A stretch of DNA of 64,000 nucleotides, taken from contig OZ024740.1 of the NCBI GenBank assembly GCA_964016885.1, forward strand, positions 210,738,001 to 210,802,000. Reading direction: 5' to 3'. Every line of letters starts with the position of its first letter. The first letter of the stretch is position 1. Below, one piece after another: positions 14,640 to 61,802 of the stretch. Origin of the DNA: Eledone cirrhosa. Lineage: Eukaryota. A program made the position numbers and the translations under genes. A model generated the notes under the pieces. It saw only the letters and a program-made list of their open reading frames with translations, was not told where the DNA came from and ran no database searches.

Positions 14640-14949
<310 letters not shown>

Positions 14950-20002: not shown

Positions 20003-20042
20003 ATATATATATATGCCAATTCACCGCCAAATAATAATAATA

Positions 20043-20351: not shown

Positions 20352-20513
20352 ATTTGAAAATGAGGGTTTTTTTCCAAAATGAAAAAAAACGAGATGTCTT
20401 ACACGAGTGAAAGTATAAGGAAAAAAAAGCATAAGAACTGCGAAACCGGTAAAGGAACCAAATAAATATTCTTAAAAAGACTCCAGTTACATTTTCGATT
20501 TCATCTTTTTACC

Positions 20514-20628
<115 letters not shown>

Positions 20629-23600: not shown

Positions 23601-23669
<69 letters not shown>

Positions 23670-23672
<3 letters not shown>

Positions 23673-25352
23673 CACAGAGGTATCCACAGTAAGTTGTGGT
23701 GTCTATTCTGCATGAAGAACTCGATGTAATCCATATGTGTTGAAAATGTTGTAGGTTAAGATAAATCCAGGAAAACAATAAAACATTAAAAGGAAAACTG
23801 AGTCATGATATAAGTTAAAACAATGAAATAAAAAATCAAGTCATTAGAGATATACTTCACTGCTTTACGATCGTTTCTAGGTGATGATAATACATTGTAG
23901 CTATACTCTGTTATTGATCACAGCTCACAGCTGCGGTTTGAATGAGCTTGCAGACAGCATAACTATAGTCTGACCGCAGCTGTGAGCAGGTGTGCAGGCA
24001 TGTCTGGTAATTGAGACGTTAACCGGCAATTGAGATCCTAAAAATGGAAAAACCCACAGTCAACTGGGTCAAAGACACTTTGAGCGCAGCCAGTTAGAAT
24101 CTTATCTTTCCTTCACCGATAACAATGTATTTCATGTCTGAAATTATTGACTCAACCGTAACGAGTTAACACTATGTAGATCTATTTTATTCTCTATTGT
24201 ATAAATAATATTACAAATAAAAAAAAAGAAAAGAAAAAAACAGAAGCGAGTAGAACACACATCTAGGACCACATACAACACATAATCAGATAATACACAC
24301 ATGTTTGGAATATTGTTAATCAATTTTTTAGTAATCTACTGATATAAAAATCAGTAGTATATTGAAAAAGTGAAAAAATAGGGTGGCAGCGGGGGGGGGG
24401 GGGGGGGTTTCGTGATTTCGAGGGACAAAAGCGTTTGGCCTAAATGGGTTGAGAACCTGTGATGTAGAGTATGAGAATTTAACAGTATATTTGCTAAATA
24501 TTTGGTGGTATCTGTGGTTTGGTGGAAAATGTTTATGTAGAATTTCAAAGAATTTTGGGGGATTTATTTTTGGTTGGATATCAATATAACTGTATCTCTC
24601 TATATATAGTGTGGATATATGCACTTTGTAATCTATGAAATGTATGTGTTTTAACTATGCCAACATGTATTTATCTGAGTTTGATTGTTTATACATAAAC
24701 ATACTTGATAGTATTTTAGAGCGTATCATATGCTGTATTATACTAAGTGCAATTTACCACACCATACTATATTGTGTTGGTTATGTTGTATATTATCGCA
24801 TTACTGTATTTCATTATCTTATTATAATTTTCATCTTTTAATATACTATCTTTCCTAGCCCATAACCTTAATTTATATTCACCTAAAAACTCAATATAAC
24901 ACTAATCACCATTTATTTTGACATTCCTTTTAAACTCCACTATACCAGATACATTCAACTATCAATTTGACAATCCCTTTCCTCCTAATAGATTTTTATG
25001 CCAATTCTATTATTAACACCATTCAACCATTCCTTTCAAAGGGTCATGACCTCAACTAAAGTTATTTCTTTTCATCTTAACACCATATGAAAAACAACAA
25101 TTTGATTGGTTAGTTCTTTAACTACCTCCAAATAAGGACATGATACTAACATACTACTAATTCTGAATAAAATTATTATTGCTTTTGGAAACAGCTGGTG
25201 ATATTCTCTTTATCTGATATTTTGTAACTAACCTTACATAGATCAATAACAGAGTATAGCTACAATGTATTATCATCACCTAGAAACGATCGTAAAGCAG
25301 TGAAGTATATCTCTAATGACTTGATTTTTTATTTCATTGTTTTAACTTATAT
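23670..25352. mobile_element. Rearranged Penelope-like element with 110-bp inverted repeats (23810-23919 / 25241-25351)
   Basis: Exact inverted match including gaaacgatcgta. Internal minus-strand remnant FFEILHKHFPPNHRYHQIFSKYTVKFSYST (24455-24570) is homologous to the linker of the 18-kb element. Confidence 0.75.
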
Positions 25353-25366
25353 ATACATATATATAT

Positions 25367-26020
25367 AATTATAATAAAATAACAGGAGGCTGGACTTGTG
25401 TTAATCCTTGAAAGGTTTATTATACTATGATCATCTCAATGACCGGGTTCCGTATGAATCCGGTGATATCATCAGGTATTCGAAATATAATAAATGAATG
25501 TAACATAAAACATATCAGGTATTCGAAATATAATAAATGAATGTAACAGATAAAATCCATGGGGCTGAAAATAATAGACCCGAGGACGACCGACCATCTA
25601 GCATCTTCCACTTTAGTCGGTCGCCCTCAGATAGCTTTAAGTAGACCGAATGGCCAGCATTTGAGGGCGACCGGCTAAAGTGGAAGATGCTAGATGGTCG
25701 GTCGTCCTCGGGTCTATGATTTTCAGCCCCATGGATTTTATCTGTTACATTCATTTATTATATTTCGAATACCTGATGATATCACCGGATTCATACGGAA
25801 CCCGGTCATTGAAATGATCATAGTATAATAAACCTTTCAAGGATTTACACAAGTCCAGCCTCCTGTTATTTTATTATAATAATTAACTCCGTACTCGCAC
25901 CACCAACTACACAAACGAAGACGGTTGAGCTGCTTTACGTTGAGTACTCTCCATATTATTACATCAAGATTGACCATACGGAATGACCAGCTCTATTCAG
26001 TGGTGAACCTTCAAACCTAA

Positions 26021-28476: not shown

Positions 28477-29032
28477 TTTCGTATTTCGAAAGAAATACGA
28501 TTTTAGGAAGCGGTAGCTATGCGAACACCGGGGGGGGGGGGGTTTAAACGCCCTCTGGTGTTGTCCAGCAGAAGCAAGGGGGATAACCGTCTATGCATTT
28601 CAGGCTTGACTAGCCATCGTCAGGACGATCCCTCCCACTGCTCTGCGACTGCTGGACTTATATATATATATATTAGAAAATGAGGTTTTTTTTCCAAAAT
28701 GAAAAAAAAAAAATAGATGTCCTACACAAGTGAAAGAATAAGGAAAAAAGATGAAATCGAAAATGCAACTGGAGTCTTTTTAAGAATATTTTTTGGTTCC
28801 TTTACCGGTTTCGTAGTTCTTATGCTTTTCAAAAGTAGAATTGAGATGGAGGGTTTGTGGTTTTTCTCGCATCTGGTTCGAATGTTACTTCTGTTTTATG
28901 TGGGAAAAGGTGGCTCGTAATGGTAGGTTTTTAGAAAAGTAATTTGGTTGGTTGATGACTGTCACGTGAATAAGTATAATAAATTTCGCACCAGTTCGCG
29001 TTACAAAGTTCTAAAAAAAAAAAAGTAGAAAC

Positions 29033-36360: not shown

Positions 36361-36442
36361 CTTTTAAAAAATTGTTTGTTTTATCTTAGCGTTAACAGGT
36401 TTTGAATGTATTAATGGTGGTATGTCTTATATTTACTTGCAG

Positions 36443-36660
36443 ACTATGTTGATGTGACGTACATGGGTAGTGATAAAGACGTGAACAACGGCAGTAGCAG
36501 TCGTGGTGGAAACATCAGTGAAAGTTTGGCGTTCAATGTGACCACTACAACGACATCAATCAGCCTCAATCTTAGCAGGAGCCAAATCTCACTGAAAGAC
36601 CATGAGATCTTCGTAGCACGTGAGGGGCAACTGTTTAAAGAGAAAATCAACAGTATTCAG
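36443..36660 (+). CDS. Candidate internal exon of a host gene; extracellular, possibly FN3-like
   Basis: Acceptor tttacttgcAG, donor cag|GTaggg; 218-bp open frame [72 protein letters not shown] with four N-glycosylation sequons; no TE motif recognised. Confidence 0.5.
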
Positions 36661-41958: not shown

Positions 41959-42789
41959 AATAATAATAATAATATACATATTTGATGGACTGTTTTCTTT
42001 TGTAGGGTGTAGAGAGGTGTTACCAAGACAAGGAAAATGGTGCTGTGGTTATTGCACTTCCTGCGGAGCCTTCTGGCACCACATTTGAACTGGTATGTGC
42101 AAGTTACTTTTGATCTTTATATATACATATATACATTCAAAATAGAGAGCGAACAGGACAAAGACAATGGAAAAACAACGGAAAGGCGGATAATCCTATA
42201 TCCTCAGTCAAACTCTGGAAATCACAACGGTTTCGGTATATTAATGTTGATACCCTTCATTTCCAGTGCTCATTATATGTATGTGTATATGTATACCCGA
42301 GGGTAGGCTGACAGGTTCATAGACTGACTATGATGGGGTGATGCTAGAGCTGTGAAATGTAGCAGGCATTAATTTCAACTCTTCTTATTAATAACAGCAT
42401 TGCTTCTTCTCTGGGATTATGTTGAAAAATAAACCTCATTTGGTCATTCCATGAGAGTATCTTGGTCAGCCTGTGCATATATATATTGTATTAATCGTTA
42501 TTTTATTATATGTATAATTTGTGCCTTCGGTCGGTTCTCTTGGTGTCAAATTTTATAACTATAGTGTTTAACTCTGGATTTAATATTTGTTTTTAACTTT
42601 CGATCCATTGAGTGCTCTGTGATTGCCTCAAAACAAGTCGAATAGTACTTTCTGTACTTCAGCTAAAGTTCGATTTACCAAACCACAAACCCTCCATCTC
42701 AATTATACATTTGAAAAGAACTGTGAAACCGGTAAAGGAAATAAATAAATATTCTTAAAAATACTCCAGTTGCATTTTCGACTTTTTCT

Positions 42790-42825
<36 letters not shown>

Positions 42826-42830
<5 letters not shown>

Positions 42831-43341
42831 GATAAATCTACCAAAATATACGGTAGTGTCCAATCCGTATGAAGAACTCAATGTAATCCAAATATCATGA
42901 AAAGAGAAGATGTATTCAAAATTTTGTCGATGAAAAACACAGGAAAACAGAGTCAAGATAAATTAATAAAAACAATGAATAAAAACTAAGAAACAGTTCC
43001 TTATATTAAAAAATTCATCATTTTACGATCGTTTCTAGGATATATATGTGTGTGTTGGTATGTATATCATATAAATCTATGTAAAAGTTTTACAAACTAT
43101 CAGAAGGAATATACATACCTACACATATATATGCTGTCTTCAGAAATAATTATTTCTGAATACAGCATATATATGTGTAGGTATGTATATTCCTTCTGAT
43201 AGTTTGTAAAACTTTTACATAGATTTATATGATATACATACCAACACACACATATATATCCTAGAAACGATCGTAAAATGATGAATTTTTTAATATAAGG
43301 AACTGTTTCTTAGTTTTTATTCATTGTTTTTATTAATTTAT
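42826..43341 (-). mobile_element. Loop-less fold-back of the 7.2-kb pLTR family (192-bp arms, 42958-43149 / 43150-43341)
   Basis: Perfect palindrome centred on aataa|ttatt with one mismatch (43161); hammerhead motif at 43020-43147 (-). Confidence 0.9.
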
Positions 43342-43349
43342 ATATATAT

Positions 43350-43578
43350 ATATAAAGAAAAAAGATGAAATCGAAAATGCAACTGGAGTCTTATTTTTTT
43401 TTAAAATATATATATTTATTTGGTTCCTTTACCGGTTTCGCAGTTCTTCTGCTTTTCAAAAGTAGAGTTGAGATGGAGGGTCTGTGGTTTTTCAGACCCT
43501 CCATCTCAACTCTACTTTTGAAAAGCAGAATGACTCTTATCAACAAATTTTATTCCTTAATTTACGATATATTACTTC

Positions 43579-43580
<2 letters not shown>
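43350..43580. mobile_element. Penelope-type pLTR fragment with a 39-bp-arm hairpin (43447-43530)
   Basis: Family also at 20352-20515, 28672-28870 and 42672-42795 (gaaaccggtaaagg motif). Confidence 0.65.
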
Positions 43581-43643
<63 letters not shown>

Positions 43644-44138: not shown

Positions 44139-44221
44139 TTAAATGTAAGTATGCATGTATAAGTGCCATACTAAGAGTGAGAAATGAAATTTCGTTTTCA
44201 TTTTGTTTCAATTTATATATA

Positions 44222-44452
44222 TATTGGTAAACGGAAAAGAAAATGCTGACAAATTGTTCACAGTGAAAAATAGTTTAATTAGGAATAAGTGAGAATTAGT
44301 AATAGTATTGGTTAAAAACTGAATACTAACCAATACTATTACTAATTCTCACTTATTCTTAATTAAACTATTTTTCACTGTGAACAATTTGTCAGCATTT
44401 TCTTTTCCGTTTACCAATATACCATAACTTGTGTGTTACACCTCTATTCTTT

Positions 44453-45085: not shown

Positions 45086-45649
45086 CGGGAGTTGGTGGAG
45101 TTTAAGCAGATAAAGTGGTTGATGTTGTCAACCTGACTGTTCGAAGTGTGATAACATTCTGTTTGACAGCGCAAACTTTACTGTCGAACCTGCGTAAAGA
45201 ATTCAATATGTAGTTAAATATTTACAGGCATATAGCGTCTCTGAGTAATTTCCCTAGTGTTTTTTTAATATACTAATTTCCAAATGTCATTGTACGTAAA
45301 TGATTTTCTTATTACTACTTCAGCAACAACGCTGAAGTTTATTCTTCGCTGAGGAGGCCTAAGAAGACTGGAAAATTTCCAGAGTTCTCTTTGTCCGTAG
45401 TTAATATTGGTCATTAAACTAATGTTTGCATTTCTTCATAGTATAATTATTTCAGTTAGCTTTGCCACAGCGAGAGAAATAATTTAACGTTTTGGACTCT
45501 TGTATTTTTCTGAAAATAGGAAAGAATATAAGGAAGAGTTATCCTCTGGATCAAAAATAAGTGGGGATAAGGCAGAGAGGTGACATGAAGGAAACCAAGT
45601 GTGAAAAGCGAGCAAGCTAAACGGTGGGGGAGGAAATTAAGTGTATGTG

Positions 45650-48600
45650 AGGGGTGGATGAGGTTTTAACAAGTTTAAGGTCAGTTGAAATGGGAGGGAG
45701 GAGTGGATGAGGTTCTAACAAGTTCTAAGTCAGTTGAAATGGGAGGGAGGGGTGAATGAAGTTCTAACAAGTTCTAAGTCAGTTGAAATGGGTGGGAGGG
45801 GTGGATGATGTTCTAACAAGTTCTAGGTCAGTTGAAATGGGAGGGAGGGGTGGTTGAGGTTCTAACAAGTTCAAGGTCAGTTGAAATGAGAGGGAGGAGT
45901 GAATGAGGTTCTAACAAGTTCAAGGTCAGTTGAAATGGGAGGGAGGGGTGAATGAGGTTCTAACAAGCTCTAGGTCAGTTGAAATGGGAGGGAGGGGTGA
46001 ATGAGGTTCTAACAAGTTCAAGGTCAGTTGAAATGGGAGGGAGGGGTGGATGAGGTTCTAACAAGTTCTAGGTCAGTTGAAATGGGAGGGAGGGGTGGAT
46101 GGGGTTCTAACAAGTTCAAGGTCAGTTGAAATGGGAGGGAGGGGTGGATGAGGTTCTAACAAGTTCTAAGTCAGTTGAAATGGGAGGGAGGGGTGAATGA
46201 GGTTCTAACAAGTTCCAGGTCAGTTGAAATGGGAGGGAGGGGTGGATGAGGTTCTAACAAATTCTAGGTCAGTTGAAATGGGAGGGAGGGGTGGATGAGG
46301 TTCTAACAAGTTCTAGGTCAGTTGAAATGGGAGGGAGGGGTGAATGAGGTTCTAACAAGTTCTAGGTCAGTTGAAATGGGAGGGAGGGGTGGATGAGGTT
46401 CTAACAAGTTCAAGGTCAGTTGAATTGGGAGGGAGGGGTGGATGAGGTTCTAAGAAGTTCAAGGGCAGTTGAAATGGGAGGGAGGGGTGGATGTGGTTCT
46501 AACAAGTTCAAGGTCAGTTGAAATGGGAGGGTGGAGTGGATGAGGTTCTAACAAGTTCTAAGTCAGTTGAAATGGGGGGAGGGGTGGATGAGGTACTAAC
46601 AAGTTCTAAGTCAGTTGAAATGGGAGCGAGGGGTGGATGATGTTCTAACAAGTTCTAGGTCAGTTGAAATGGGAGGGAGGGGTGGATGAGGTTCTAACAA
46701 GTTCTAAGTCAGTTGAAATGGAAGGGAGGGGTAGATGAGGTTCTAACAAGTTCTAGGTCAGTTGAAATGGGAGCGAGGGGTGGATGAGGTTCTAACAAAT
46801 TTTAAGTCAGTTGAAATGGAAGGGAGGGGTGGATGAGGTTCTAAGAAGTTCAAGGTCAGTTGAAATGAGAGGGAGGGGTGGATGAGGTTCTAACAAGTTC
46901 TAGGTCAGTTGAAATGGGTGGGAGGAGTGAATGAGGTTCTAACAAGTTCAAGATCAGTTGAAATGGGAGGGAGTGGTGGATGAGGTTCTAACAAGTTCAA
47001 GGTCAGTTGAAATGGGAGGGAGGGGTGGATGAGGTTCTAACAAGTTCAAGGTAAGTTGAAATCGGAGGGAGGGGTGGATGAGGTTCTAACAAGTTCTAAG
47101 TCAGTTGAAATGGGAGGGAGGGGTGGATGAGGTTCTAACAAGTTCAAGGTCAGTTGAAATGGGAGGGAGGGGTGGATGGGGTTCTAAGAAGTTCTAAGTC
47201 AGATGAAATGGGAGGGAGGGGTGGATGAGGTTCTAACAAGTTCAAGGTCAGTTGAAATGGGAAGGAGGGGTGGATGAGGTTCTAACAAGTTCTAGGTCAG
47301 TTGAAATGGGAGGGAGGGGTGGATGAGGTTCTAACAAGTTCTAGGTCAGTTGAAATCGGAGCGAGGGGTGGTTGAGGTTCTAACAAATTCTAAGTCAGTT
47401 GAAATGGGAGCGAGGTGTGGATGATGTTCTAACAAGTTCTAGGTCAGTTGAAATGGGAGGGAGGGGTGGATGAGGTTCTAACAAATTCTAAGTCAGTTGA
47501 AATGGGTGGGAGGGGTGGATGAGGTTCTAACAAGTTCTAAGTCAGTTGAAATGGGAGGGAGGGGTGGATGAGGTTCTAACAAGTTCAAGGTCAGTTGAAA
47601 TGGGAGGGAGGGGTGGATGGGGTTCTAACAAGTTCTAAGTCAGATAAAATGGGAGGGAGGTGTGGATGAGGTACTAACAAGTTCAAGGTCAGTTGAAATG
47701 GGAGGGAGGGGTGGATGAGGTTCTAACAAGTTCAAGGTCAGTTGAATTGGGAGGGAGGGGTGGATGAGGTTCTAAGAAGTTCAAGGGCAGTTGAAATGGG
47801 AGGGAGGGGTGGATGTGGTTCTAACAAGTTCAAGGTCAGTTGAAATGGGAGGGTGGGGTGGATGAGGTTCTAACAAGTTCTAAGTCAGTTGAAATGGGAG
47901 GTAGGGGTGGATGAGGTTCTAACAAGTTCTAGGTCAGATGAAATGGGAGGGAGGGGTGGACGAGGTTCTAACAAGTTCAAGGTCAGTTGAATTGGGAGGG
48001 AGGGGTGGATGAGGTTCTAAGAAGTTCAAGGGCAGTTGAAATGGGAGGGAGGGGTGGATGTGGTTCTAACAAGTTCAAGGTCAGTTGAAATGGGAGGGTG
48101 GGGTGGATGAGGTTCTAACAAGTTCTAAGTCAGTTGAAATGGGAGGGATGGGTGGATGAGGTTCTAACAAGTTCTAGGTCAGTTGAAATGGGAGGGAGGG
48201 GTGGATGAGGTTCTAACAAGTTCAAGGTCAGTTGAAATGGGAGGGAGGGGTGGATGAGGTTCGAACAAGTTCTAGGTCAGTTGAAATGGGAGGGAGGGGT
48301 GGATGAGGTTCTAACAAGTTCTAAGTCAGTTGAAATGGGTGGGAGGGGTGGATGAGGTTCTTAGAAGTTCTAGGTCAGTTGAAATTGGAGGGAGGGGTGG
48401 ATGAGGTTCTAAAAAGTTCTAGGTCAGTTGAAATGGGTGGGAGGGGTGGATGAGGTTCTTAGAAGTTCTAGGTCAGTTGAAATGGGAGGGAGGGGTGGAT
48501 CAGGTTCTAACAAGTTCTAGGTCAGTTGAAATGGTAGCGAGGGGTGGATGAGGTTCTAACAAATTCTAAGTCAGTTGAAATGGGAGCGAGGGGTGGATGA

Positions 48601-51600
48601 GGTTCTAACAAGTTCAAGGTCAGTTGAAATGGGAGGGAGGGGTGGATGAGGTTGTGACAAGTTCTAGGTCAGTTGAAATGGGAGGGAGTGGTGGATGAGG
48701 TTCTAACAAGTTCAAGGTCAGTTGAAATGGGAGGGAGGGGTGGATGAGGTTGTGACAAGTTCTAGGTCAGTTGAAATGGGAGGGAGTGGTGGATGAGGTT
48801 CTAACAAGTTCTAGGTCAGTTGAAATGGGTGGGAGGAGTGAATGAGGTTCTAACAAGTTCAAGGTCAGTTGAAATGGGAGGGAGGGGTGGATGAGGTTCT
48901 AACAAGTTCTAGGTCAGTTGAAATGGGAGCGAGGGGTGGTTGAGGTTCTAACAAATTCTAAGTCAGTTGAAATGGGAGCGAGGGGTGCATGATGTTCTAA
49001 CAAGTTCTAGGTCAGTTGAAATGGGAGGGAGGGGTGGATGAGGTTCTAACAAATTCTAAGTCAGTTGAAATGGGAGGGAGGGGTGGATGAGGTTCTAACA
49101 AGTTCTAAGTCAGTTGAAATGGGAGGGAGGGGTGGATGGGGTTCTAACAAGTTATAAGTCAGATGAAATGGGAGGGAGGTGTGGATGAGGTACTAACAAG
49201 TTCAAGGTCAGTTGAAAGGGAGGGAGGGGTGGATGAGGTTCTAACAAGTTCTAGGTCAGTTGAAATGGGAGGGAGGGGTGGATGAGGTTCTAACAAGTTC
49301 TAGGTCAGTTGAAATCGGAGGGAGGGGTGGATGAGGTTCTAACAAATTCTAAGTCAGTTGAAATGGGAGCGAGGGGTGGATGATGTTCTATCGAGTTCTA
49401 GGTCAGTTGAAATGGGAGGGAGGGGTGGATGAGGTTCTAACAAGTTCAAGGTCAGTTGAAATTTGTGGGAGGGGTGGATGAGGTTCTTAGAAGTTCTAGG
49501 TCAGTTGAAATGGGAGGGAGGGGTGGATGAGGTTCTAAAAGATCTAGGTCAGTTAAAATTGGAGCGAGGGGTGGATGAGGTTCTAACAAATTCTAAGTCA
49601 GTTGAAATGGGTGTGAGGGACGGATGAGATTCTTATAAGTTCTAGGTCAGTTGAAATGGGAGGTAGGGGTGGATGAGGTTCTAACAAGATCTAGGTCAGT
49701 TGAAATGGGATGGAGGGGTGGATGTGGTTCTAACAAGTTCTAGGTCAGTTGAAATGAGAGGGAGGGGTGGATGAGGTTCAAACAAGTTCTAGGTCAGTTG
49801 AAATGAGAGGGAGGGGTGGATGAGGTTCTAACAAGTTCTAAGTCAGTTGAAATGTGAGGGAGGGGTGGATGAGGTTCTAACAAGTTCTAGGTCAGTTGAA
49901 ATGGGTGGGAGGGGTGGATGATGTTCTAACAAGTTCTAAGTCAGTTGAAATGGGAGGGAGGGGTTGATGAGGTTCTAACAAGTTCTAGGTCAGTTGAAAT
50001 GGGAGGAAGGGGTGGATGAGGTTCTAACAAGATCTAGGTCAGTTGAAATGGGAGGGAGGTGTGTATGAGGTTCTAACAAGTTCAAGGTCAGTTGAAATGG
50101 GAAGGAGGGGTGGATGAGGTTCTAACAAGTTCTAAGTCAGTTGAAATGGGAGGGAGGGGTGGATGAGGTTCTAACAAGATCTAGGACAGTTGAAAGGAAG
50201 GGAGGAGTGGATGAGGTTCTTACAAGTTCTAGGTCAGTTGAAATGGGAGGGGTGGATGAGGTTTCTACATGTTCAAGGTCAGTTGAAATGGTAGGGAGGA
50301 GTGGATGAGGTTCTAACAAGTTCTAGGTGAGTTGAAATGGGTGGGAGGGGTGGATGAGGTTCTAACAAGTTCAAGGTCAGTTGAAATGGGAGGGAGGGGT
50401 GGATGAGGTTCTAACAAGTTCAAGGTCAGTTTAAATGGGAGGGAGGGGTGGATGAGGTTCTAACAAGTTCAAGGTCAGTTGAAATGTGAGGGAGGGGTGG
50501 ATGAGGTTCTAACAAGTTCAAGGTCAGTTGAAATGGGAGGGAGGGGTGGATGAGGTTCTAACAAGTTCTAGGTCAGTTGAAATGGGAGGGAGGGGTGGAT
50601 GAGGTTCTAACAAGTTCTAAGTCAGTTGAAATGGGGGGGAGGGGTGGATGAGGTTCTAACAAGTTCTAAGTCAGTTGAAATGGGGGGGGGGGATGAGGTT
50701 CTAACAAGTTCTAAGTCAGTTGAAATGGGGGGGAGGGGTGGATGAGGTTCTAACAAGTTCTAAGTCAGTTGAAATGGGAGGGAGGGGTGGATGAGGTTCT
50801 AACAAGTTCAAGGTCAGTTGAAATGGGAGGGAGGGGTGGATGAGATTCTAACAAGTTCTAGGTCAGTTGAAATGGGAGGGAGGGGTGGATGAGATTCTAA
50901 CAAGTTCTAGGTCAGTTGAAATGGGGGGGAGGGGTGGATGAGGTTCTAACATGTTCTAAGTCAGTTGAAATGGGAGGGAGGGGTGGATGAGATTCTAACA
51001 AGTTCTAGGTCAGTTGAAATGGGAGGGAGGGTGGATGAGATTCTAACAAGTTCTAGGTCAGTTGAAATGGGAGGGAGGGGTGGATGAGATTCTAACAAGT
51101 TCTAGGTCAGTTGAAATGGGAGGGAGGGGTGGATGAGGTTCTAACAAGTTCTAAGTCAGTTGAAATGGGGGGGAGGGGTGGATGAGGTTCTAACAAGTTC
51201 TAAGTCAGTTGAAATGGGGGGGAGGGGTGGATGAGGTTCTAACAAGTTCTAAGTCAGTTGAAATGGGGGGGAGGGGTGGATGAGTTTCTAACAATTTCTA
51301 AGTCAGTTGAAATGGGAGGCAGGGGTGGATGAGATTCTAACAAATTCTAGGTCAGTTGAAATGGGAGGGAGGGGTGGATGAGGTTCTAACAAGTTCTAAG
51401 TCAGTTGAAATGGGGGGGAGGGGTGGATGAGGTTCTAACAAGTTCTAAGTCAGTTGAAATGGGAGGGAGGGGTGGATGAGGTTCTAACAAGTTCTAGGTC
51501 AGTTGAAATGGGAGGGAGGGGTGGATGAGATTCTAACAAGTTCTAGGTCAGTTGAAATGGGAGGGAGGGGTGGATGAGATTCTAACAAGTTCTAGGTCAG

Positions 51601-54600
51601 TTGAAATGGGGGGGGAGGGGTGGATGAGGTTCTAACATGTTCTAAGTCAGTTGAAATGGGAGGGAGGGGTGGATGAGATTCTAACAAGTTCTAGGTCAGT
51701 TGAAATGGGAGGGAGGGGTGGATGAGATTCTAACAAGTTCTAGGTCAGTTGAAATGGGAGGGAGGGGTGGATGAGATTCTAACAAGTTCTAGGTCAGTTG
51801 AAATGGGAGGGAGGGTGGATGAGGTTGTAACAAGTTCTAAGTCAGTTGAAATGGGAGGAAGGGGTGGATGATGTTCTAACAAGTTCTAAGTCAGTTGAAA
51901 TGGGAGGGAGGGGTGGATGAGATTCTAACAAGTTCTAGGTCAGTTGAAATGGGAGGGAGGGGTGGATGAGATTCTAACAAGTTCTAGGTCAGTTGAAATG
52001 GGAGGGAGGGGTGGATGAGGTTCTAACAAGTTCTAAGTCAGTTGAAATGGGGGGGAGGGGTGGATGAGGTTCTAACAAATTCTAAGTCAGTTGAAATGGG
52101 AGCGAGGGGTGGATGATGTTCTATCGAGTTCTAGGTCAGTTGAAATGGGAGGGAGGGGTGGATGAGGTTCTAACAAGTTCAAGGTCAGTTGAAATTTGTG
52201 GGAGGGGTGGATGAGGTTCTTAGAAGTTCTAGGTCAGTTGAAATGGGAGGGAGGGGTGGATGAGGTTCTAAAAGATCTAGGTCAGTTAAAATTGGAGCGA
52301 GGGGTGGATGAGGTTCTAACAAATTCTAAGTCAGTTGAAATGGGTGTGAGGGACGGATGAGATTCTTATAAGTTCTAGGTCAGTTGAAATGGGAGGTAGG
52401 GGTGGATGAGGTTCTAACAAGATCTAGGTCAGTTGAAATGGGATGGAGGGGTGGATGTGGTTCTAACAAGTTCTAGGTCAGTTGAAATGAGAGGGAGGGG
52501 TGGATGAGGTTCAAACAAGTTCTAGGTCAGTTGAAATGAGAGGGAGGGGTGGATGAGGTTCTAACAAGTTCTAAGTCAGTTGAAATGTGAGGGAGGGGTG
52601 GATGAGGTTCTAACAAGTTCTAGGTCAGTTGAAATGGGTGGGAGGGGTGGATGATGTTCTAACAAGTTCTAAGTCAGTTGAAATGGGAGGGAGGGGTTGA
52701 TGAGGTTCTAACAAGTTCTAGGTCAGTTGAAATGGGAGGAAGGGGTGGATGAGGTTCTAACAAGATCTAGGTCAGTTGAAATGGGAGGGAGGTGTGTATG
52801 AGGTTCTAACAAGTTCAAGGTCAGTTGAAATGGGAAGGAGGGGTGGATGAGGTTCTAACAAGTTCTAAGTCAGTTGAAATGGGAGGGAGGGGTGGATGAG
52901 GTTCTAACAAGATCTAGGACAGTTGAAAGGAAGGGAGGAGTGGATGAGGTTCTTACAAGTTCTAGGTCAGTTGAAATGGGAGGGGTGGATGAGGTTTCTA
53001 CATGTTCAAGGTCAGTTGAAATGGTAGGGAGGAGTGGATGAGGTTCTAACAAGTTCTAGGTCAGTTGAAATGGGTGGGAGGGGTGGATGAGGTTCTAACA
53101 AGTTCAAGGTCAGTTGAAATGGGAGGGAGGGGTGGATGAGGTTCTAACAAGTTCAAGGTCAGTTTAAATGGGAGGGAGGGGTGGATGAGGTTCTAACAAG
53201 TTCAAGGTCAGTTGAAATGGGAGGGAGGGGTGGATGAGGTTCTAACAAGTTCAAGGTCAGTTGAAATGGGAGGGAGGGGTGGATGAGGTTCTAACAAGTT
53301 CTAGGTCAGTTGAAATGGGAGGGAGGGGTGGATGAGGTTCTAACAAGTTCTAAGTCAGTTGAAATGGGGGGGAGGGGTGGATGAGGTTCTAACAAGTTCT
53401 AAGTCAGTTGAAATGGGGGGGGGGTGGATGAGGTTCTAACAAGTTCTAAGTCAGTTGAAATGGGGGGGAGGGGTGGATGAGGTTCTAACAAGTTCTAAGT
53501 CAGTTGAAATGGGAGGGAGGGGTGGATGAGGTTCTAACAAGTTCAAGGTCAGTTGAAATGGGAGGGAGGGGTGGATGAGATTCTAACAAGTTCTAGGTCA
53601 GTTGAAATGGGAGGGAGGGGTGGATGAGATTCTAACAAGTTCTAGGTCAGTTGAAATGGGGGGGAGGGGTGGATGAGGTTCTAACATGTTCTAAGTCAGT
53701 TGAAATGGGAGGGAGGGGTGGATGAGATTCTAACAAGTTCTAGGTCAGTTGAAATGGGAGGGAGGGTGGATGAGATTCTAACAAGTTCTAGGTCAGTTGA
53801 AATGGGAGGGAGGGGTGGATGAGATTCTAACAAGTTCTAGGTCAGTTGAAATGGGAGGGAGGGGTGGATGAGATTCTAACAAGTTCTAGGTCAGTTGAAA
53901 TGGGAGGGAGGGGTGGATGAGGTTCTAACAAGTTCTAAGTCAGTTGAAATGGGGGGGAGGGGTGGATGAGGTTCTAACAAGTTCTAAGTCAGTTGAAATG
54001 GGGGGGAGGGTTGGATGAGGTTCTAACAAGTTCTAAGTCAGTTGAAATGGGGGGGAGGGGTGGATGAGTTTCTAACAATTTCTAAGTCAGTTGAAATGGG
54101 AGGCAGGGGTGGATGAGATTCTAACAAATTCTAGGTCAGTTGAAATGGGAGGGAGGGGTGGATGAGGTTCTAACAAGTTCTAAGTCAGTTGAAATGGGGG
54201 GGAGGGATGGATGAGGTTCTAACAAGTTCTAAGTCAGTTGAAATGGGAGGGAGGGGTGGATGAGGTTCCAACAAGTTCTAGGTCAGTTGAAATGGGAGGG
54301 AGGGGTGGATGAGATTCTAACAAGTTCTAGGTCAGTTGAAATGGGAGGGAGGGGTGGATGAGATTCTAACAAGTTCTAGGTCAGTTGAAATGGGGGGGAG
54401 GGGTGGATGAGGTTCTAACATGTTCTAAGTCAGTTGAAATGGGAGGGAGGGGTGGATGAGATTCTAACAAGTTCTAGGTCAGTTGAAATGGGAGGGAGGG
54501 GTGGATGAGATTCTAACAAGTTCTAGGTCAGTTGAAATGGGAGGGAGGGGTGGATGAGATTCTAACAAGTTCTAGGTCAGTTGAAATGGGAGGGAGGGTG

Positions 54601-56010
54601 GATGAGGTTGTAACAAGTTCTAAGTCAGTTGAAATGGGAGGAAGGGGTGGATGATGTTCTAACAAGTTCTAAGTCAGTTGAAATGGGAGGGAGGGGTGGA
54701 TGAGATTCTAACAAGTTCTAGGTCAGTTGAAATGGGAGGGAGGGGTGGATGAGATTCTAACAAGTTCTAGGTCAGTTGAAATGGGAGGGAGGGGTGGATG
54801 AGGTTCTAACAAGTTCTAAGTCAGTTGAAATGGTGGGGAGGGGTGGATGAGGTTCTAACAAGTTCTAAGTCAGTTGAAATGGGGGGGAGGGGTGGATGAG
54901 GTTCTAACAAGTTCTAAGTCAGTTGAAATGGGGGGGAGGGGTGGATGAGTTTCTAACAAGTTCTAAGTCAGTTGAAATGGGAGGCAGGGGTGGATGAGAT
55001 TCTAACAAGTTCTGGGTCAGTTGAAATGGGAGGGAGGGGTGGATGAGATTCTAACAAGTTCTAGGTCAGTTGAAATGGGAGGGAGGGGTGGATGAGATTC
55101 TAACAAGTTCTAGGTCAGTTGAAATGGGAGGGAGGGGTGGATGAGGTTCTAACAAGTTCTAAGTCAGTTGAAATGGGAGGGAGGGGTGGATGAGGTTCTA
55201 ACAAGTTCTAGGTCAGTTGAAATGGGAGGGAGGGGTGGATGAGATTCTAACAAGTTCTAGGTCAGTTGAAATGGGAGGGAGGGGTGGATGAGGTTCTAAC
55301 AAGTTCTAAGTCAGTTGAAATGGGGGGGAGGGGTGGATGAGGTTCTAACAAGTTCTAAGTCAGTTGAAATGGGGGGGAGGGGTGGATGAGGTTCTAACAA
55401 GTTCTAAGTCAGTTGAAATGGGGGGGAGGGGTGGATGAGGTTCTAACAAGTTCTAAGTCAGTTGAAATGGGGGGGAGGGGTGGATGAGGTTCTAACAAGT
55501 TCTAAGTCAGTTGAAATGGGAGGGAGGGGTGGATGAGATTCTAACAAGTTCTAGGTCAGTTGAAATGGGAGGGAGGGGTGGATGAGGTTCTAACAAGTTC
55601 TAGGTCAGTTGAAATGGGAGGGAGGGGTGGATGAGGTTCTAACAAGTTCTAGGTCAGTTGAAATGGGAGGGAGGGGTGGATGAGGTTCTAACAAGTTCTA
55701 GGTCAGTTGAAATGGGAGGGAGGGGTGGATGAGGTTGTAACAAGTTCTAAGTCAGTTGAAATGGGAGGGAGGGGTGGATGAGGTTCTAACAAGTTCTAAG
55801 TCAGTTGAAATGGGAGGGAGGGGTGGATGAGATTCTAACAAGTTCTAGGTCAGTTGAAATGGGAGTGAGGGGTGGATGAGGTTGTAACAAGTTCTAAGTC
55901 AGTTGAAATGGGAGAGAGGGGTGGATGAGGTTCTAACAAGTTCTAAGTCAGTTGAAATGGGAGAGAGGGGTGGATGAGGTTCTAACAAGTTCTAGGTCAG
56001 TTGAAATGGC
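45650..56010. repeat. 49-bp G-rich satellite, ~210 copies
   Basis: Unit gttctaacaagttctaggtcagttgaaatgggagggaggggtggatgag; 49-bp spacing of anchors. Confidence 0.98.
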
Positions 56011-56052
56011 AGGCAGACGTTAGGACGTCGGGGAGAATGCTTATATTATTTA

Positions 56053-56805: not shown

Positions 56806-56967
<162 letters not shown>

Positions 56968-57121
56968 TAATAAAAATAATGAATAAACAAAGAAACAGTT
57001 CCTTATATTAAAAAATTCATCATTTTACGATCGTTTCTAGGATATATATGTTAGTGTTGGTATGCATATCATATAGATCTATGTAAAATTTTTACAAACT
57101 ATCAATTCATCAATTCATGTA

Positions 57122-57183
57122 TTTTATCTGACGAGGACGTACTGAAAAAACAGCACAGTACCTTCGAAATATATATAATAAAA
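57122..57183 (+). ncRNA. Type I hammerhead ribozyme motif
   Basis: ttttat-CTGACGA-ggacgtactg...cagtaccttc-GAAA-tatata-TA-ataaaa. Confidence 0.7.
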
Positions 57184-57265
57184 CATATATTTTGATTATG
57201 TGAATGTTTTCATTTATTAATATTTTGAATAATATATATAAATATATATATATATATAGTGTGTA

Positions 57266-57370
<105 letters not shown>

Positions 57371-57443
57371 AGGTAATTCCGAAGAAAAAGCAAAGGAAAA
57401 AAGAGTGCTCTATGTATAGAACAGAGCTATTTAATTAGAAAGT

Positions 57444-57596
57444 GAACAACACAAAATTTAACTACTCCATTGCCAAACGTTTCAGGACCCTAGACAATAT
57501 TTTACATCTCTATCTGATGAACGAACTAGACGTATATTAATATTATCTAGGGTCCTGAAACCTTTGGTAATGGAGTAGTTATATTTTGTGTTGTTT
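57444..57596 (+). mobile_element. Fold-back element with a hammerhead motif (57510-57573) spanning loop and right arm
   Basis: Arms ~57444-57500 / 57540-57596; ctat-CTGATGA-...ctaga..tctag...-GAAAC-ctttg-GTA-atgg. Confidence 0.7.
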
Positions 57597-57602
57597 ACTT
57601 AC

Positions 57603-57799: not shown

Positions 57800-60700
57800 A
57801 TATGAAAAAACTGTTAAACATTGTGTACAACAACAATTTAGTAAAAACCCAAGGGCCTAACTTTACCCAGGAAGGGGATTTCCCCCACCTCAAAATGAGT
57901 AAGGCCCCCAGAGGACACATATAAAACACTAAAAAACAACTTTAAAGACGACGTGCACCCCCCTCCGCGTCGGGCCCATTAACCGCGTCCTCCTAAAAAA
58001 CTTCCCCACTCCCTCCCCAATCACCCACACAACTCCAAACACCCCAATCACACAACACACTGATGCCCCCACACTTCCACAAACCACCACCCCACCCAAC
58101 AACCCATCCCCTACCCTCATGGAAATTGTGCAGCCCGTTACCCGGGACGCAGAGAGGTAAGTGCCTTTTCTCTTCACCCACAACATGGCTATGCTAAGAG
58201 TAGGCTGTCTAAATGCGCGTGGCCTGAGCTCAACTTGGAAGCAAGCAATGCTTCTAAATGACCTCAGGTCACAACGTATAGATGTGATGGTTATTTGCGA
58301 GGCCCGGATCAGCAAAGTGCGACAGCTGGCCCCCACCTCTGATGACTTTGAGATGCACGCATCTCTCTGTCAGCCCGGAGGTGGGGGTGGGATTGTCGTT
58401 CTGCTGCAAAAACATCTGGGTCTCGCAACACAGACGGTACATTTGGACCCGGAGGGTCGACTAGTGGTTCTGGACCTTGGCAGTGGTGAAGGCGGAGCGT
58501 TTAGGTTGGTAGCCATCTACGGCCCCTTCGGGTCAATGCGGCCGGACTTCTTCCATCGTCTGGAGACTTTTCTAGGGACATCCCGCTCCTTGCTATTAGT
58601 GGGGGACTGGAATGGTATCCTAGATGCACGTTGGGACTACGTAGGGGCCTGTCCCGATAGAGAGAGGTGTAATAGCCTCAAAGGGTTAATCGGTCGATTT
58701 GACCTGGCCGATAGATATCGACTAGATTTTCCGACTGTGCCAACCTGGACTTGGGTAAACCTTAGCGGATCATCTAGGTCGTACCTAGATAGGTTCTTAG
58801 TTAGAAATAAGGATAAGGACTTTTTAAGTTGTCCAAAAATGCGCATGGTTGGCTATTCAGACCACAAGTTAGTGACTTGCATGGTCAACCTTGACAGAAC
58901 GCATAGACAGGGACCCGGTTACTGGAAGCTCAACTTGTTCTTACCGGCAAGTAAGGCTTACAGGGACCGGATTAGCACTTTAGTTAAGGAGCGGTTGACG
59001 GGCGCCATCGTCAACAGCAGGTGGTGGGGATCTCTCAAAAGAGAGAATAGAGTAGTCTCTATAGAATTTAGTAAGGAGTTAGCCTCAAATAGAAATAGGA
59101 AGGAAGTTGGTAGATAGTGTAGAAGAGGCAATTAGAAGCGGCGACGTGGCCAGAGTGCTAGCGTTGAGAACGGCCCTGGGCCAGTTCTTCGACGCGAAAC
59201 ACGAAGGCCGCATCGTCCGAAGCAAAATACGGTCTTTGCGAGACCAGGATGGACGGGTGATCCTTGAACCTAAGCAGATGTGCGAGGCTTTTCAAAAGCA
59301 CTTTGCCAGATTGTTCGGAAGGGGCGGGGAGCCGGTTGGGGAAGTGGAATTCGGTCCATACCTCGACGGCCTGCCGCGTCTCTCGGACGGGGAGGCGAAG
59401 TCCTGAAAGAAGCCGATTTCAGCCGCTGAGATAGGGGACGTGCTGAGCCAATGCGGCAAATGCCAATCCCCGGGTCTCGATGGTCTTCCATACGAACTAT
59501 ATCTAGCTATGCCGGACTTGTTCCCCGATCTCCTCGAGGCGGTCTACTGCGACTGGCAACAGAACGGGAGAATTCCCTGTGCTGTGACCAAGGGCGTAGT
59601 CACGCTAGTGAGGAAGGACGAGAACAAGGGGGACGATATAAATAATTTCAGGCCCATAACTCTGCTAAATACAGAGTTACAGATTTTGGCCAAGGTGCTA
59701 GCAAAGAGGTTGGCGCTTGTCGTGGGAAACCTGGTGGGAGATGCGCAGACATGTGCTATACCGTCCAGGTCCATCCACGACAACCTCCACATCATGCGAT
59801 ACATCATAGAGAGGGTTGGGAACGAACCCGGCTTTGGTGGGGCCCTGATCAACTTGGATCAATCTAGAGCGTTCGATAGGGTCGACCATGGTTTCCTGGA
59901 TGCGGTGCTAGCGGCGGCAAGCTTCGGACCCGTTTTCAGGGGCTGGATCAATGCCATGCACAGCAGCCGCATCTGCTCTAGGGTCAAGGTGAACTGCTAT
60001 CTCTCAGAGCCGTTCGAAATCGCGCGGTCCATCCGACAAGGGTACCCTCTCTCCTCCCTTCTGTATGTAGTTACTCTAGAGCCACTGCTACGGAAGTTGG
60101 AGTTGTTGCAGGGCATCCCGTTGGAACCGGGATTGCGGAAAGCTGTGTCGGCCTACGCCGATGACGTAACAGTAATGGTGTCGACGGCCTCGGAAATCGG
60201 GGCGATCGGCACCTTACTGAAGGAGTACGAAAGGTTTACAGGGGCTAAGCTGAACCGGGACAAGTCGATCTGTCTGCAACTCGGCACGTGGAGGGGCAGA
60301 TCGATGCCCTCCGATGGCGTCGTCGGGCGCTGGACGGAGGGCCCGGTGAAGTTGCTCGGGGTCTGGTTCAGACCAGACCGCCAGGTGGAGAAGAACTGGG
60401 GTAAGGTAACGAACAGGGTGTTTGCACTGACCCAGAAGTGGGCCGAGTGCAAACTGTCCCTGAAAGGTCGGGCGGAGGTGGCGAACACTTATATAGCGGC
60501 CGTCATCTACTACCGCATGACCGTCGTGCCTTGCCCAAGGGAAACGCTCGCCAAAATGGAGCGCGCACTCTTCCAATTCCTTTGGAAGAAGCGGGCTCCT
60601 ATGGTGAGGAGATCCATCAGCTGTCAACACCCTTCGAAAGGAGGGCTAGGGATGCCGTGGATGATGATGCGTAAACGCGCATTAAGGCTACGGCACCTAC

Positions 60701-61802
60701 AGGTATTCCTCACCGGTCAACCGGTGTGGGCCCCGTTTGTGAGGCGAGCCTTTCCCAGACTCGTCTCGCTCACCGAGCTGCAATCCTGGGTCAAGCAAAG
60801 ACCGAGAAAACTGGGCGCCTGGCACACCGAGTGTGCCCAGGCGCTCACGGCTCTCTGGCAGGCGGATCCGGCTGTCAGTGGAGAATCCACCTCGTCATTC
60901 TATAGAGGGCAGGTGGTTAGCAGGTGCGACGGCGCTCTCGGAGAAGCCCTAGGCATGGAGGAAGACGAACTGGCCAACCTGATCGGTAGGACATTCAGCA
61001 CGGGACCCATGGATAACTTCCAGACGTCCCTGGCCTGGCAGTGCTACCGAGGGGCTCTGCCCGTTCGAGAAAGGCTCTACAGACACGGGCGCCCGGGTAG
61101 GGACCCTTCGAAAAAATCTGTCCCAGATGCGTGTGCGACGAGGAAACCGTTGCACACGCATTGGTACACTGCTCGGGCATTGCCGATTTGTGTGGCTATG
61201 TCGAACAACTACTGTATAGGGTGGGACCAGTCCGGTTGACCACCGAGTCTATTGTAATGATCAAGCCGCCTCCCCTCTTCAAAAACGAAGAAGAGGCGGT
61301 GTTTCTGTGCGTAATAGCCATGGCGAAAGAGGTTGTATGGTGGACGTGTCTGAAAGGACTGAGGTCAGACACCTTTCTCTCTGGCCAACAACTAGTCCGT
61401 TTCTTCCGATATCATTTCGGAAGAAGGATCAGGATGGAGAGAGAGGTGCTGCACCCCAGCCGTTTTTATGAAAGATGGGTGAAAGTGGCGAGAATGGCCC
61501 GTGTGAATGGGCCTTCACTCTACATCAGACTATAGGTGAGGAAGATGAAAGATCAAGGGAGCACCCCCCCCTCTGTGCTCCTGAGGAGAAGGGTTGCACA
61601 CTTTTTTCGGGGGTGTGTGCGACCCCCCAAGGCGCCTCCTCCCTATTGAGGATTTTGTTATTAAATTTATTTTTGTTATATTTTATATATTATTTTTATA
61701 TTTTGTTATTGCCTCCTCCTTATTGAGGACGCCTTTTTATGTAAACTCCCCCCATTGTACTTGTACCACTTTTTGATGCCCTGGTGGCAAATAAAAAGAA
61801 AG
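57800..61802 (+). mobile_element. Tx1/L1-clade LINE, 5'-truncated in ORF1
   Basis: ORF1 tail, then ORF2 from ATG 58185; 3' UTR ending ggtggcaaataaaaagaaa; TATC-like flanks. Confidence 0.9.
58185..61535 (+). pseudogene. LINE ORF2 (APE endonuclease + RT + C-terminal Cys/His motif), frameshifted
   Basis: LNARGL, GDWN, SYLDRF, SDH, GYWKLN; SPGLDGLP, FRPITLLN, DQSRAFDRVDH, RQGYPLS, AYADD, GGLG; CPRC..EETVAHALVHC; breaks near 59110, 59405 and 61110. Confidence 0.92.

Follow-up and report, generated by a model that had tools for sequence, protein, structure and literature searches.

Why should the only base that separates the two arms of a long palindrome fall on a catalytic residue of a ribozyme? 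We address this question for a locus in a 64-kb stretch of Eledone cirrhosa DNA (hereafter the window), in which two hammerhead motifs on opposite strands face each other head to head and one of them has lost the guanosine at core position G8, a state that the initial annotation attributed to selective or mechanistic inactivation of one ribozyme copy.

A loop-less palindrome with a single mismatch

Alignment of the arms delimits a palindrome of 384 bases at 42958-43341, with arms of 192 nt each, a loop of 0 nt and an axis between 43149 and 43150. Pairing ends at 42957/43342, and the sole mismatch sets C at 43138 opposite T at 43161. The 192-bp palindrome with no loop and one mismatch described initially is thereby reproduced to the base, as are both core readings, CTGAAGA on the minus arm and CTGAATA on the plus arm with the alteration of G8 at 43161. 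At the RNA level these correspond to CUGAAGA on the minus arm (C3 at 43143) and CUGAAUA on the plus arm (C3 at 43156, G8>U at 43161). The axis had also been placed on the hexamer taatta, said to recur in an unfolded copy of the element near 7505; a short palindrome is indeed found there, but it measures 8 bp (7504-7511) rather than 6. The features of the palindrome and its surroundings are as follows.

42958..43341, unstranded: loop-less palindrome, arms of 192 nt, mismatch 43138/43161 (arm comparison)
43146..43153, unstranded: 8-bp self-complementary microhomology on the axis (same octamer at 7504-7511 in the unfolded copy)
42793..42827, unstranded: (TA)n target, left side
43342..43354, unstranded: (TA)n target, right side

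Among the long palindromes found, this is the only one without a loop. The chance that one mismatch strikes any of the 11 core bases is 5.7% of the arm, in line with the 6% estimated at the outset, and the chance that it falls within 12 nt of the axis is 6.25%, about as improbable. The core strike is one of two comparable coincidences at 43138/43161, the other being closeness to the axis.

A credible PLE-type hammerhead in each arm

Both arms carry a motif that is credible as a type I hammerhead of Penelope-like elements (PLEs), its cleavage being a prediction:

43015..43152, minus: type I hammerhead with intact core (C3 43143, G8 43138), 101-nt helix II region and palindromic helix III (motif scan; helix II predicted, z -3.2; read variation)
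43147..43284, plus: the same hammerhead with G8>U at 43161 (arm comparison, motif scan, read variation, folding)
43147-43155 with 43276-43284, plus: helix I
43156-43162, plus: core
43163-43263, plus: helix II
43264-43267, plus: GAAA
43267-43274, plus: helix III, with the predicted cut after 43275

In either arm the core is followed by 101 nt, then by GAAA, an 8-nt self-complementary helix III, UA and the partner strand of helix I. The CUGANGA...GAAA...UH core is intact on the minus arm and at 7501 in the unfolded copy, and altered by G8>U on the plus arm. The self-complementary helix III segment (43267-43274, 8 nt) is of the dimer type, like that of related loci. Helix I pairs at 7 of 8 positions, with a pairing probability in the monomer of about 0.05, and helix II is predicted to form a long hairpin (pairing probability 0.63-0.98, z -3.1 to -3.9) whose first position is a C-A mismatch. 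CUGANGA, GAAA and UH, a short helix I, a palindromic helix III and a helix II with an unpaired nucleotide at its foot are all shared with PLE type I hammerheads (PMC4209133; PMC11167929; these and the other papers cited are drawn on in excerpt), from which the palindrome differs in its very long helix II and C-A first position; its activity is a prediction. In those papers' accessible sections, PLE hammerheads have little or no activity as monomers (PMC4209133), and the Penelope hammerhead has little or no activity without the protein of the element (PMC11167929).

Sequence variation within the family was assessed by comparing contigs and reads of four runs (at most 3 samples, two studies) with 43118-43400 at 85% likeness; runs X5-X14, with small word shares, were left out, and the individuals may differ from the source of the assembly. 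Core positions other than 43161 vary at 4% or more in 0 of 10 cases, against 30 of 172 positions overall (P=0.14), an invariance that is suggestive only. The cleavage-site base H17 varies between A and U only, and the helix I variants 43151 T>C and 43280 G>A retain pairing. In helix II, the paired positions 43164 and 43262 show A>G and T>C, respectively, in similar shares, and the two variants may sit on one molecule. A diverged relative at 25.2k (25172-25305, plus) has a U3-A8 core with an additional A6>G and two double-sided changes in helix I; U3-A8 is a natural covariation in hammerheads (PMC4209133, in part). The 3' 112 nt of this copy are 100% identical to an inverted tailed copy at 23808-23919. 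A U3-A8 core variant was also seen in the hammerhead motif of a related metagenome PLE (L032:2103, plus).

Rfam hammerhead models gave 0 hits in the window at the gathering threshold, and none figured among the 71 matches that 42700-43600 yields at E<=10. The length of helix II may account for this: the A9-G12 spacing is 10-25 nt in 36 of 40 motif matches from 80 related loci, and 101 nt in the palindrome family. Four Hydra hammerheads in the portion of the PMC8557442 supplement that we could draw on have a helix II of 4-7 bp with loops of 4-9 nt, against the 101-nt helix II region of the palindrome, and no PLE helix II of such length was found in the open-licence literature, whose supplements were partly covered. 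Rfam miRNA hits were rejected as generic hairpin matches below the gathering score.

Head-to-head ends of a probable Hydra-clade element

The palindrome is likely to consist of two 5'-truncated 3' ends of a high-copy, Hydra-clade Penelope-like retrotransposon, joined head to head in a (TA)n tract. The features that bear on this assignment are:

42828..43149, minus: tail-bearing arm, a Penelope-like 3' end 5'-truncated at the outer edge of the hammerhead, into (TA)n (322-nt end-to-end alignment with 7196-7507)
42828..42957, minus: 130-nt tail, on the tail-bearing arm only (same long end in 7196-7511 and 23660-23919)
43150..43341, plus: tail-less arm (end site the same as in copies at 56962 and 25352)
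7196..7511, minus: unfolded copy of the same family, core intact at 7501 (96% identical to the arm)
8233..8598, minus: putative C-terminus of a GIY-YIG-type endonuclease, CxxC..E..N..CxH (tblastn matches in 54 of 80 Hydra-like loci)

The minus arm thus extends 130 nt beyond the plus arm, and (TA)n is found at both arm ends. About 720 nt upstream of the unfolded copy at 7196-7511, on the same strand, lies the endonuclease ORF piece, in which CxxC and CxH flank E and N when compared by eye with the description of the Hydra clade; the (TA)n target fits as well. Pfam gave no match for this piece, and a search for the endonuclease among longer proteins returned 0 of 391 candidates. The 80 related metagenome loci were fetched with a reverse transcriptase (RT) alignment from a neighbouring element of the window, at 17.9-19.3k, which has a PLE-type RT; none belonging to the palindrome's own family was found in the 64-kb window. 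RT3-RT4 of P0006 and of the related loci resemble Hydra-2_Amil in a by-eye match, and the neighbouring 19k element has the CxCX5C linker of the Hydra clade (PMC8557442, in part), whereas ORF 8233-8598 ends at (TA)n before the position of that motif. Likeness to Hydra-clade PLEs in the same source extends to the CxxC/CxH endonuclease around E and N, to (TA)n and to a hammerhead near the 3' end, and the placement in this clade, by motifs compared by eye, is likely.

The summed contig depth of the family at palindrome positions is 1e5-8e5, which is not a copy number and points to a very large family; a search of metagenome contigs for the exact family pattern gave 0 matches. Of the 12 inverted pairs of the window that were compared, 11 combine a tailed with a tail-less arm, the 43.5k pair being ambiguous, and in the 17-20k and 23.8/25.3k pairs the tail-less copy is the longer arm. 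The same layout is described for EN+ PLE insertions, which typically have an inverted 5'-truncated copy at the 5' end, carry a tail on one side only and target (TA)n (passages of PMC8557442), and for rotifer Penelopes, whose inverted junctions, most of them head to head, carry palindromes that were interpreted as self-priming (passages of PMC3846280). The palindrome resembles these insertions in its head-to-head arms, junction palindrome, one-arm tail and microsatellite target, and differs from them in that both arms are cut back to the hammerhead end (192 and 322 nt) with no loop, and in a tail of 130 nt against 30-40 nt. In Schistosoma, opposite-strand pairs of PLE hammerheads 100-700 bp apart have already been noted (PMC4209133; PMC11167929, both in part). 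The non-LTR retrozymes described in the available part of 10.64898/2026.07.22.740005 are likewise non-coding, carry a type I hammerhead and have a proposed PLE origin, but they are direct tandem repeats, whereas the palindrome is an inverted pair with its motifs on opposite strands; no tandem array was found at the palindrome locus. The architecture of the palindrome is already known and locally common, and the element is a further family member with an unusually long helix II. Identity as a MITE or an miRNA was ruled out by the linked endonuclease and the one-sided tail, and DNA-level fold-back of an aged copy by the coincidence of the short end with the ends of two independent copies.

G8>U is private to the palindrome

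In the accessible text of PMC11167929, G8C abolishes cleavage of the Penelope hammerhead and the double mutant C3G/G8C partly rescues it, so G8 matters through its pair with C3; the G8C mutant still inserts in vitro, unaffected, so G8 is dispensable for insertion in that system. The initial statement that G8 is essential and that its damage disables the ribozyme is therefore what the G8C result leads one to expect, that result itself not being G8U, for which no report in hammerheads was found in the open-licence literature.

Within the family, G occupies 43161 in 99.92% (X1) and 99.62% (X2) of the summed contig depth and in all of the X4 depth; the non-G depth in X1 is 79 of 101,671. The raw reads of run X15 have G in 736 of 802 and C in 56, the latter from 2 start sites. 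The residual at 43161 is comparable to those at 43194, 43225 and 43312, private sites outside the core, and the T of the plus arm is private to the palindrome. These three other sites carry family-rare letters in both arms (family majority 98.8-99.98% in contigs), and because the arms hold them in common, they should derive from one donor or one should be copied from the other; they appear since then to have been separated by one change only.

We regard it as probable that G8>U is a private, neutral substitution in the tail-less arm of a head-to-head Penelope insertion. Against this stands the 5.7% chance that a single mismatch strikes the core; with thousands of copies, one core strike is expected somewhere in the family. 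Selective or mechanistic inactivation, as originally proposed, does not sit well with a T that is private, with insertion that is unaffected by loss of G8 in vitro, with a predicted read-through hairpin or with controls that have no significant excess of core hits, the last two being set out below. No report of one-arm ribozyme inactivation was found in the open-licence literature.

Core damage in other head-to-head pairs

An alternative to chance substitution is that head-to-head Hydra-clade insertions are built asymmetrically, the tail-less hammerhead disabled and the tailed one kept intact. The tail-less arm would then be preferentially damaged, either because it came from a donor 3' pLTR with a ribozyme that is better inactive or through selection for an uncleavable template; cleavage at the 3' pLTR would leave the template without its RT start site. 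The comparison rests on the following control pairs of the window.

4621-4932, 6476-6825, 13660-13960, 17400-20008, 25365-25883 and 57440-57602: six other head-to-head hammerhead pairs, of other Penelope-like families

Their A9-G12 spacers range from 12 to 90 nt, and they hold 4 core hits in 44 substitutions where 2.24 are expected (P=0.18). The weakest controls are 17-20k, whose hammerhead is without folding support (z -0.15), and 57.5k, in which one arm lacks half of the core; P becomes 0.29 without the former, 0.27 without the latter and 0.44 without both. Core hits in the controls are not significantly enriched. Counted by pair, 4 of 6 controls have a core substitution (1.88 expected, P=0.07), and adding the palindrome gives 5 of 7 (P=0.013), but the palindrome was chosen for its hit.

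Sorted by tail state, the damage looks less even. Six pairs have two full cores, and in 5 of them one core is damaged, on the tail-less arm each time (sign test P=0.06): G12>U with a 22-nt deletion at 6.6k, an 11-nt deletion of helix I and C3 at 13.8k, A6>C at 20k in the 17-20k pair, A14>G at 25.4k in the 25.6k pair and G8>U at 43k, with no core damage on the tailed arms of those pairs. Both cores of the 4.7k pair are intact. Across all classified full cores, with unpaired and half-paired copies added, 6 of 9 tail-less against 0 of 8 tailed ones are damaged (Fisher P=0.009; 5 of 8 against 0 of 7 without the 43k pair, P=0.026), a sorting that is post hoc, of small n and preceded by one on strand, with solo copies found mainly by an intact-core scan and with the copy at 28623 left out for its unclear tail state. 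A strand bias of core damage was rejected window-wide, 3 plus against 3 minus arms being hit. Lesions distributed over 11 positions would stay under the 4% threshold for listing in reads, so that the core invariance seen there would be compatible with an asymmetry. Yet the damaged, truncated arm of the 57.5k pair is the tailed one, and T is nearly absent from the family, so that no G8U donor lineage has spread. Derived changes outside the core fall on the tail-less arm too: in the 13.8k and 25.6k pairs all three polarisable ones do (a 1-nt insertion in the former, a substitution and a 43-nt duplication in the latter), which fits a generally error-prone second arm over ribozyme-specific selection. 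By stem logic, changes are also present in both 17-20k arms and in the 6.6k tailed arm. Among the 80 related PLE loci, hammerheads are present with no inverted pair that has the motif on both arms; 4 direct pLTR pairs with two motifs are all intact, these being 97-100% identical ends of short assemblies. We consider asymmetric construction unlikely.

A sequencing or consensus error, in which the T or the junction would be an artefact of reading through a perfect hairpin, is if anything slightly less likely. No piece spanning the axis is among the 24 of 3533 read and contig pieces listed, leaving the T of 43161 without a spanning read, no strand-change joint is among those listed, and non-G depth in X1 is as low as 79 of 101,671. 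However, the arms are unequal in extent, the short end is common to two independent copies, (TA)n lies at both ends and ten similar pairs lie nearby; moreover, the runs may come from other individuals, the pieces listed are few and contigs drop rare variants.

Predicted read-through of the palindrome in a likely intron

The plus strand of the window also carries pieces of a putative host gene:

42006..42092, plus: candidate internal exon of an ADAM/ADAMTS-like (reprolysin M12B) gene (93% identical to P0002 residues 109-137)

A further exon-like stretch at 36436-36660 (plus) matches residues 37-108 of P0002, which has 867 residues and the Pfam domains Reprolysin and ADAMTS_CR_2. P0002 seems, by eye, to be without the canonical HExxH zinc motif. 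The remainder of the gene falls beyond the window. A search of solved structures with the exon gave chance hits only. The splice donor of exon 42006-42092 lies about 870 nt upstream of the palindrome, and since no later P0002 residue matches the window downstream of that exon, the palindrome is likely to reside in an intron of more than 21 kb, its plus (mutated) arm being the sense arm. This intronic setting, the one-sided tail and the identity as a Hydra-like Penelope end had escaped the initial annotation. A G-rich satellite (45649-56013; 49 bp in 212 copies, 93% matches) lies inside the same putative intron.

Host transcription would make the antisense arm first, and the emerging sense arm would pair with it. 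The full hairpin has a predicted folding energy of -289 kcal/mol, against -30 kcal/mol for a single arm, and in simulated growing transcripts the hairpin probability reaches 0.999 by 43200 with helix I/II probabilities of 0.000. The read-through RNA is accordingly predicted to be one hairpin in which neither ribozyme copy folds, and because the sense arm would zip onto the antisense arm made earlier, no phenotype is predicted for G8>U. Blocking of ribozyme folding in vivo by stable upstream structures has a precedent (PMC2817708, in part).

It is against this background that host selection has to be judged, under which an active plus-strand ribozyme would cut the ADAM-like pre-mRNA 1 kb into a long intron and G8U would be favoured. 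The exons at 36436-36660 and 42006-42092 lie on the plus strand and the mutated arm is the sense arm, as this explanation would have it, but the antisense arm lies upstream and is predicted to capture the motif by pairing, in keeping with the precedent just cited, and the putative intron retains two further plus-strand cores that are intact, at 57128 and 57514. The weakness of PLE hammerheads as monomers or without protein (PMC4209133; PMC11167929, as excerpted above) argues in the same direction, and the ADAM-like gene is itself a candidate known here from its sequence. We hold host selection to be very unlikely. Least probable of all is an effect of the palindrome centre, whereby near-axis mutations would be commoner, or kept for damping cruciform formation, and G8 struck by adjacency: the mismatch does lie 12 nt (6.25% of the arm) away from the axis of the only loop-less long palindrome found, and palindromes recombine more readily the longer and more perfect they are and when they have no spacer (PMC7999016, in part), but despite this one mismatch a centre of 11 bp and arms of 180 bp remain perfect.

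Possible routes to the junction

For the preferred reading, a private and neutral substitution in a head-to-head insertion, the following sequence of events may be envisaged. The endonuclease would nick both target strands in (TA)n, and reverse transcription would begin at the two start sites of the element, the pLTR end and the tail end. The two cDNA ends would meet at the outer edge of the hammerhead and anneal through ATAATTAT, a route whose probability we place slightly above even; copying of one arm from the other by fold-back or a template switch at ATAATTAT comes out slightly below even. G8>U would follow as a copying error or a later point mutation. A Penelope protein cleaves each of the two target strands in vitro and extends it, and the tail is delimited by two RT start sites (PMC11167929, in part). 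No report of twin priming in PLEs was found in the open-licence literature.

In the two pairs of the window in which the tail-less arm exceeds the tailed one in length, simple copying of either arm from its partner is impossible, and both therefore needed an RNA template. Short palindrome centres occupy 20 of 1405 positions in the unfolded copy, with the ATAATTAT octamer at 7504-7511; its intramolecular fold is predicted at 0 kcal/mol and its two-strand pairing at -4.9 kcal/mol, and because the octamer would pair only between two strands, annealing of cDNAs is favoured over fold-back. The position completing the octamer is occupied by C in the majority of family reads, and these do not have the octamer; only a subfamily like the 7.5k copy would offer it, which weakens either route. 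That the donor had the octamer we infer from the 7504-7511 copy only. Fold-back self-priming at the axis, suggested initially, is left weak by an octamer that has no intramolecular fold and that most family reads do not have. Of the eight joints listed in the read comparison, five break off the minus arm at 43146-43150 and continue on the plus strand at a later position, with a gap of only 3-4 letters in two cases; their sides are short (21-27 letters), and three have an undefined spacer length. To us these joints look like separate head-to-head insertions whose truncation falls, as in the palindrome, at the hammerhead's outer edge.

Neighbouring sequence

Four short-loop palindromes lie by (TA)n elsewhere in the window (12797-12884, 14641-14765, 43447-43530 and 44220-44421), with arms of 36-95 nt, 0-2 mismatches and loops of 8-16 nt; in three of the four only one side carries a tail, and these are probably remnants of PLEs truncated within the ribozyme or below it. 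Two diverged copies (77%) of another repeat, at 42680-42795 and 43352-43493, face each other across the (TA)n of the palindrome, and further copies of this repeat are found at 20425-20516 and 28738-28866. At 57104-57222, a 5'-truncated family copy (56962-57104, minus) abuts the intact hammerhead of another family at 57128 (plus), head to head. The stretch 58161-61535 (plus) holds a non-LTR retrotransposon, its ORFs coding for an endonuclease-like protein and an RT (Pfam RVT_1, E 1.6e-24).

Implications

The 101-nt helix II points to an abundant hammerhead family that escapes both Rfam and the standard descriptors. The role of hammerheads in PLEs is stated to be unclear (PMC8557442, in part). 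Should asymmetric construction, unlikely as it is, prove true, the arms would come from functionally different templates and provide a genomic read-out of when a PLE ribozyme must and must not cut; and if the tail-less bias held genome-wide, paired arms would offer a built-in control for the role of the ribozyme, testable by counting.
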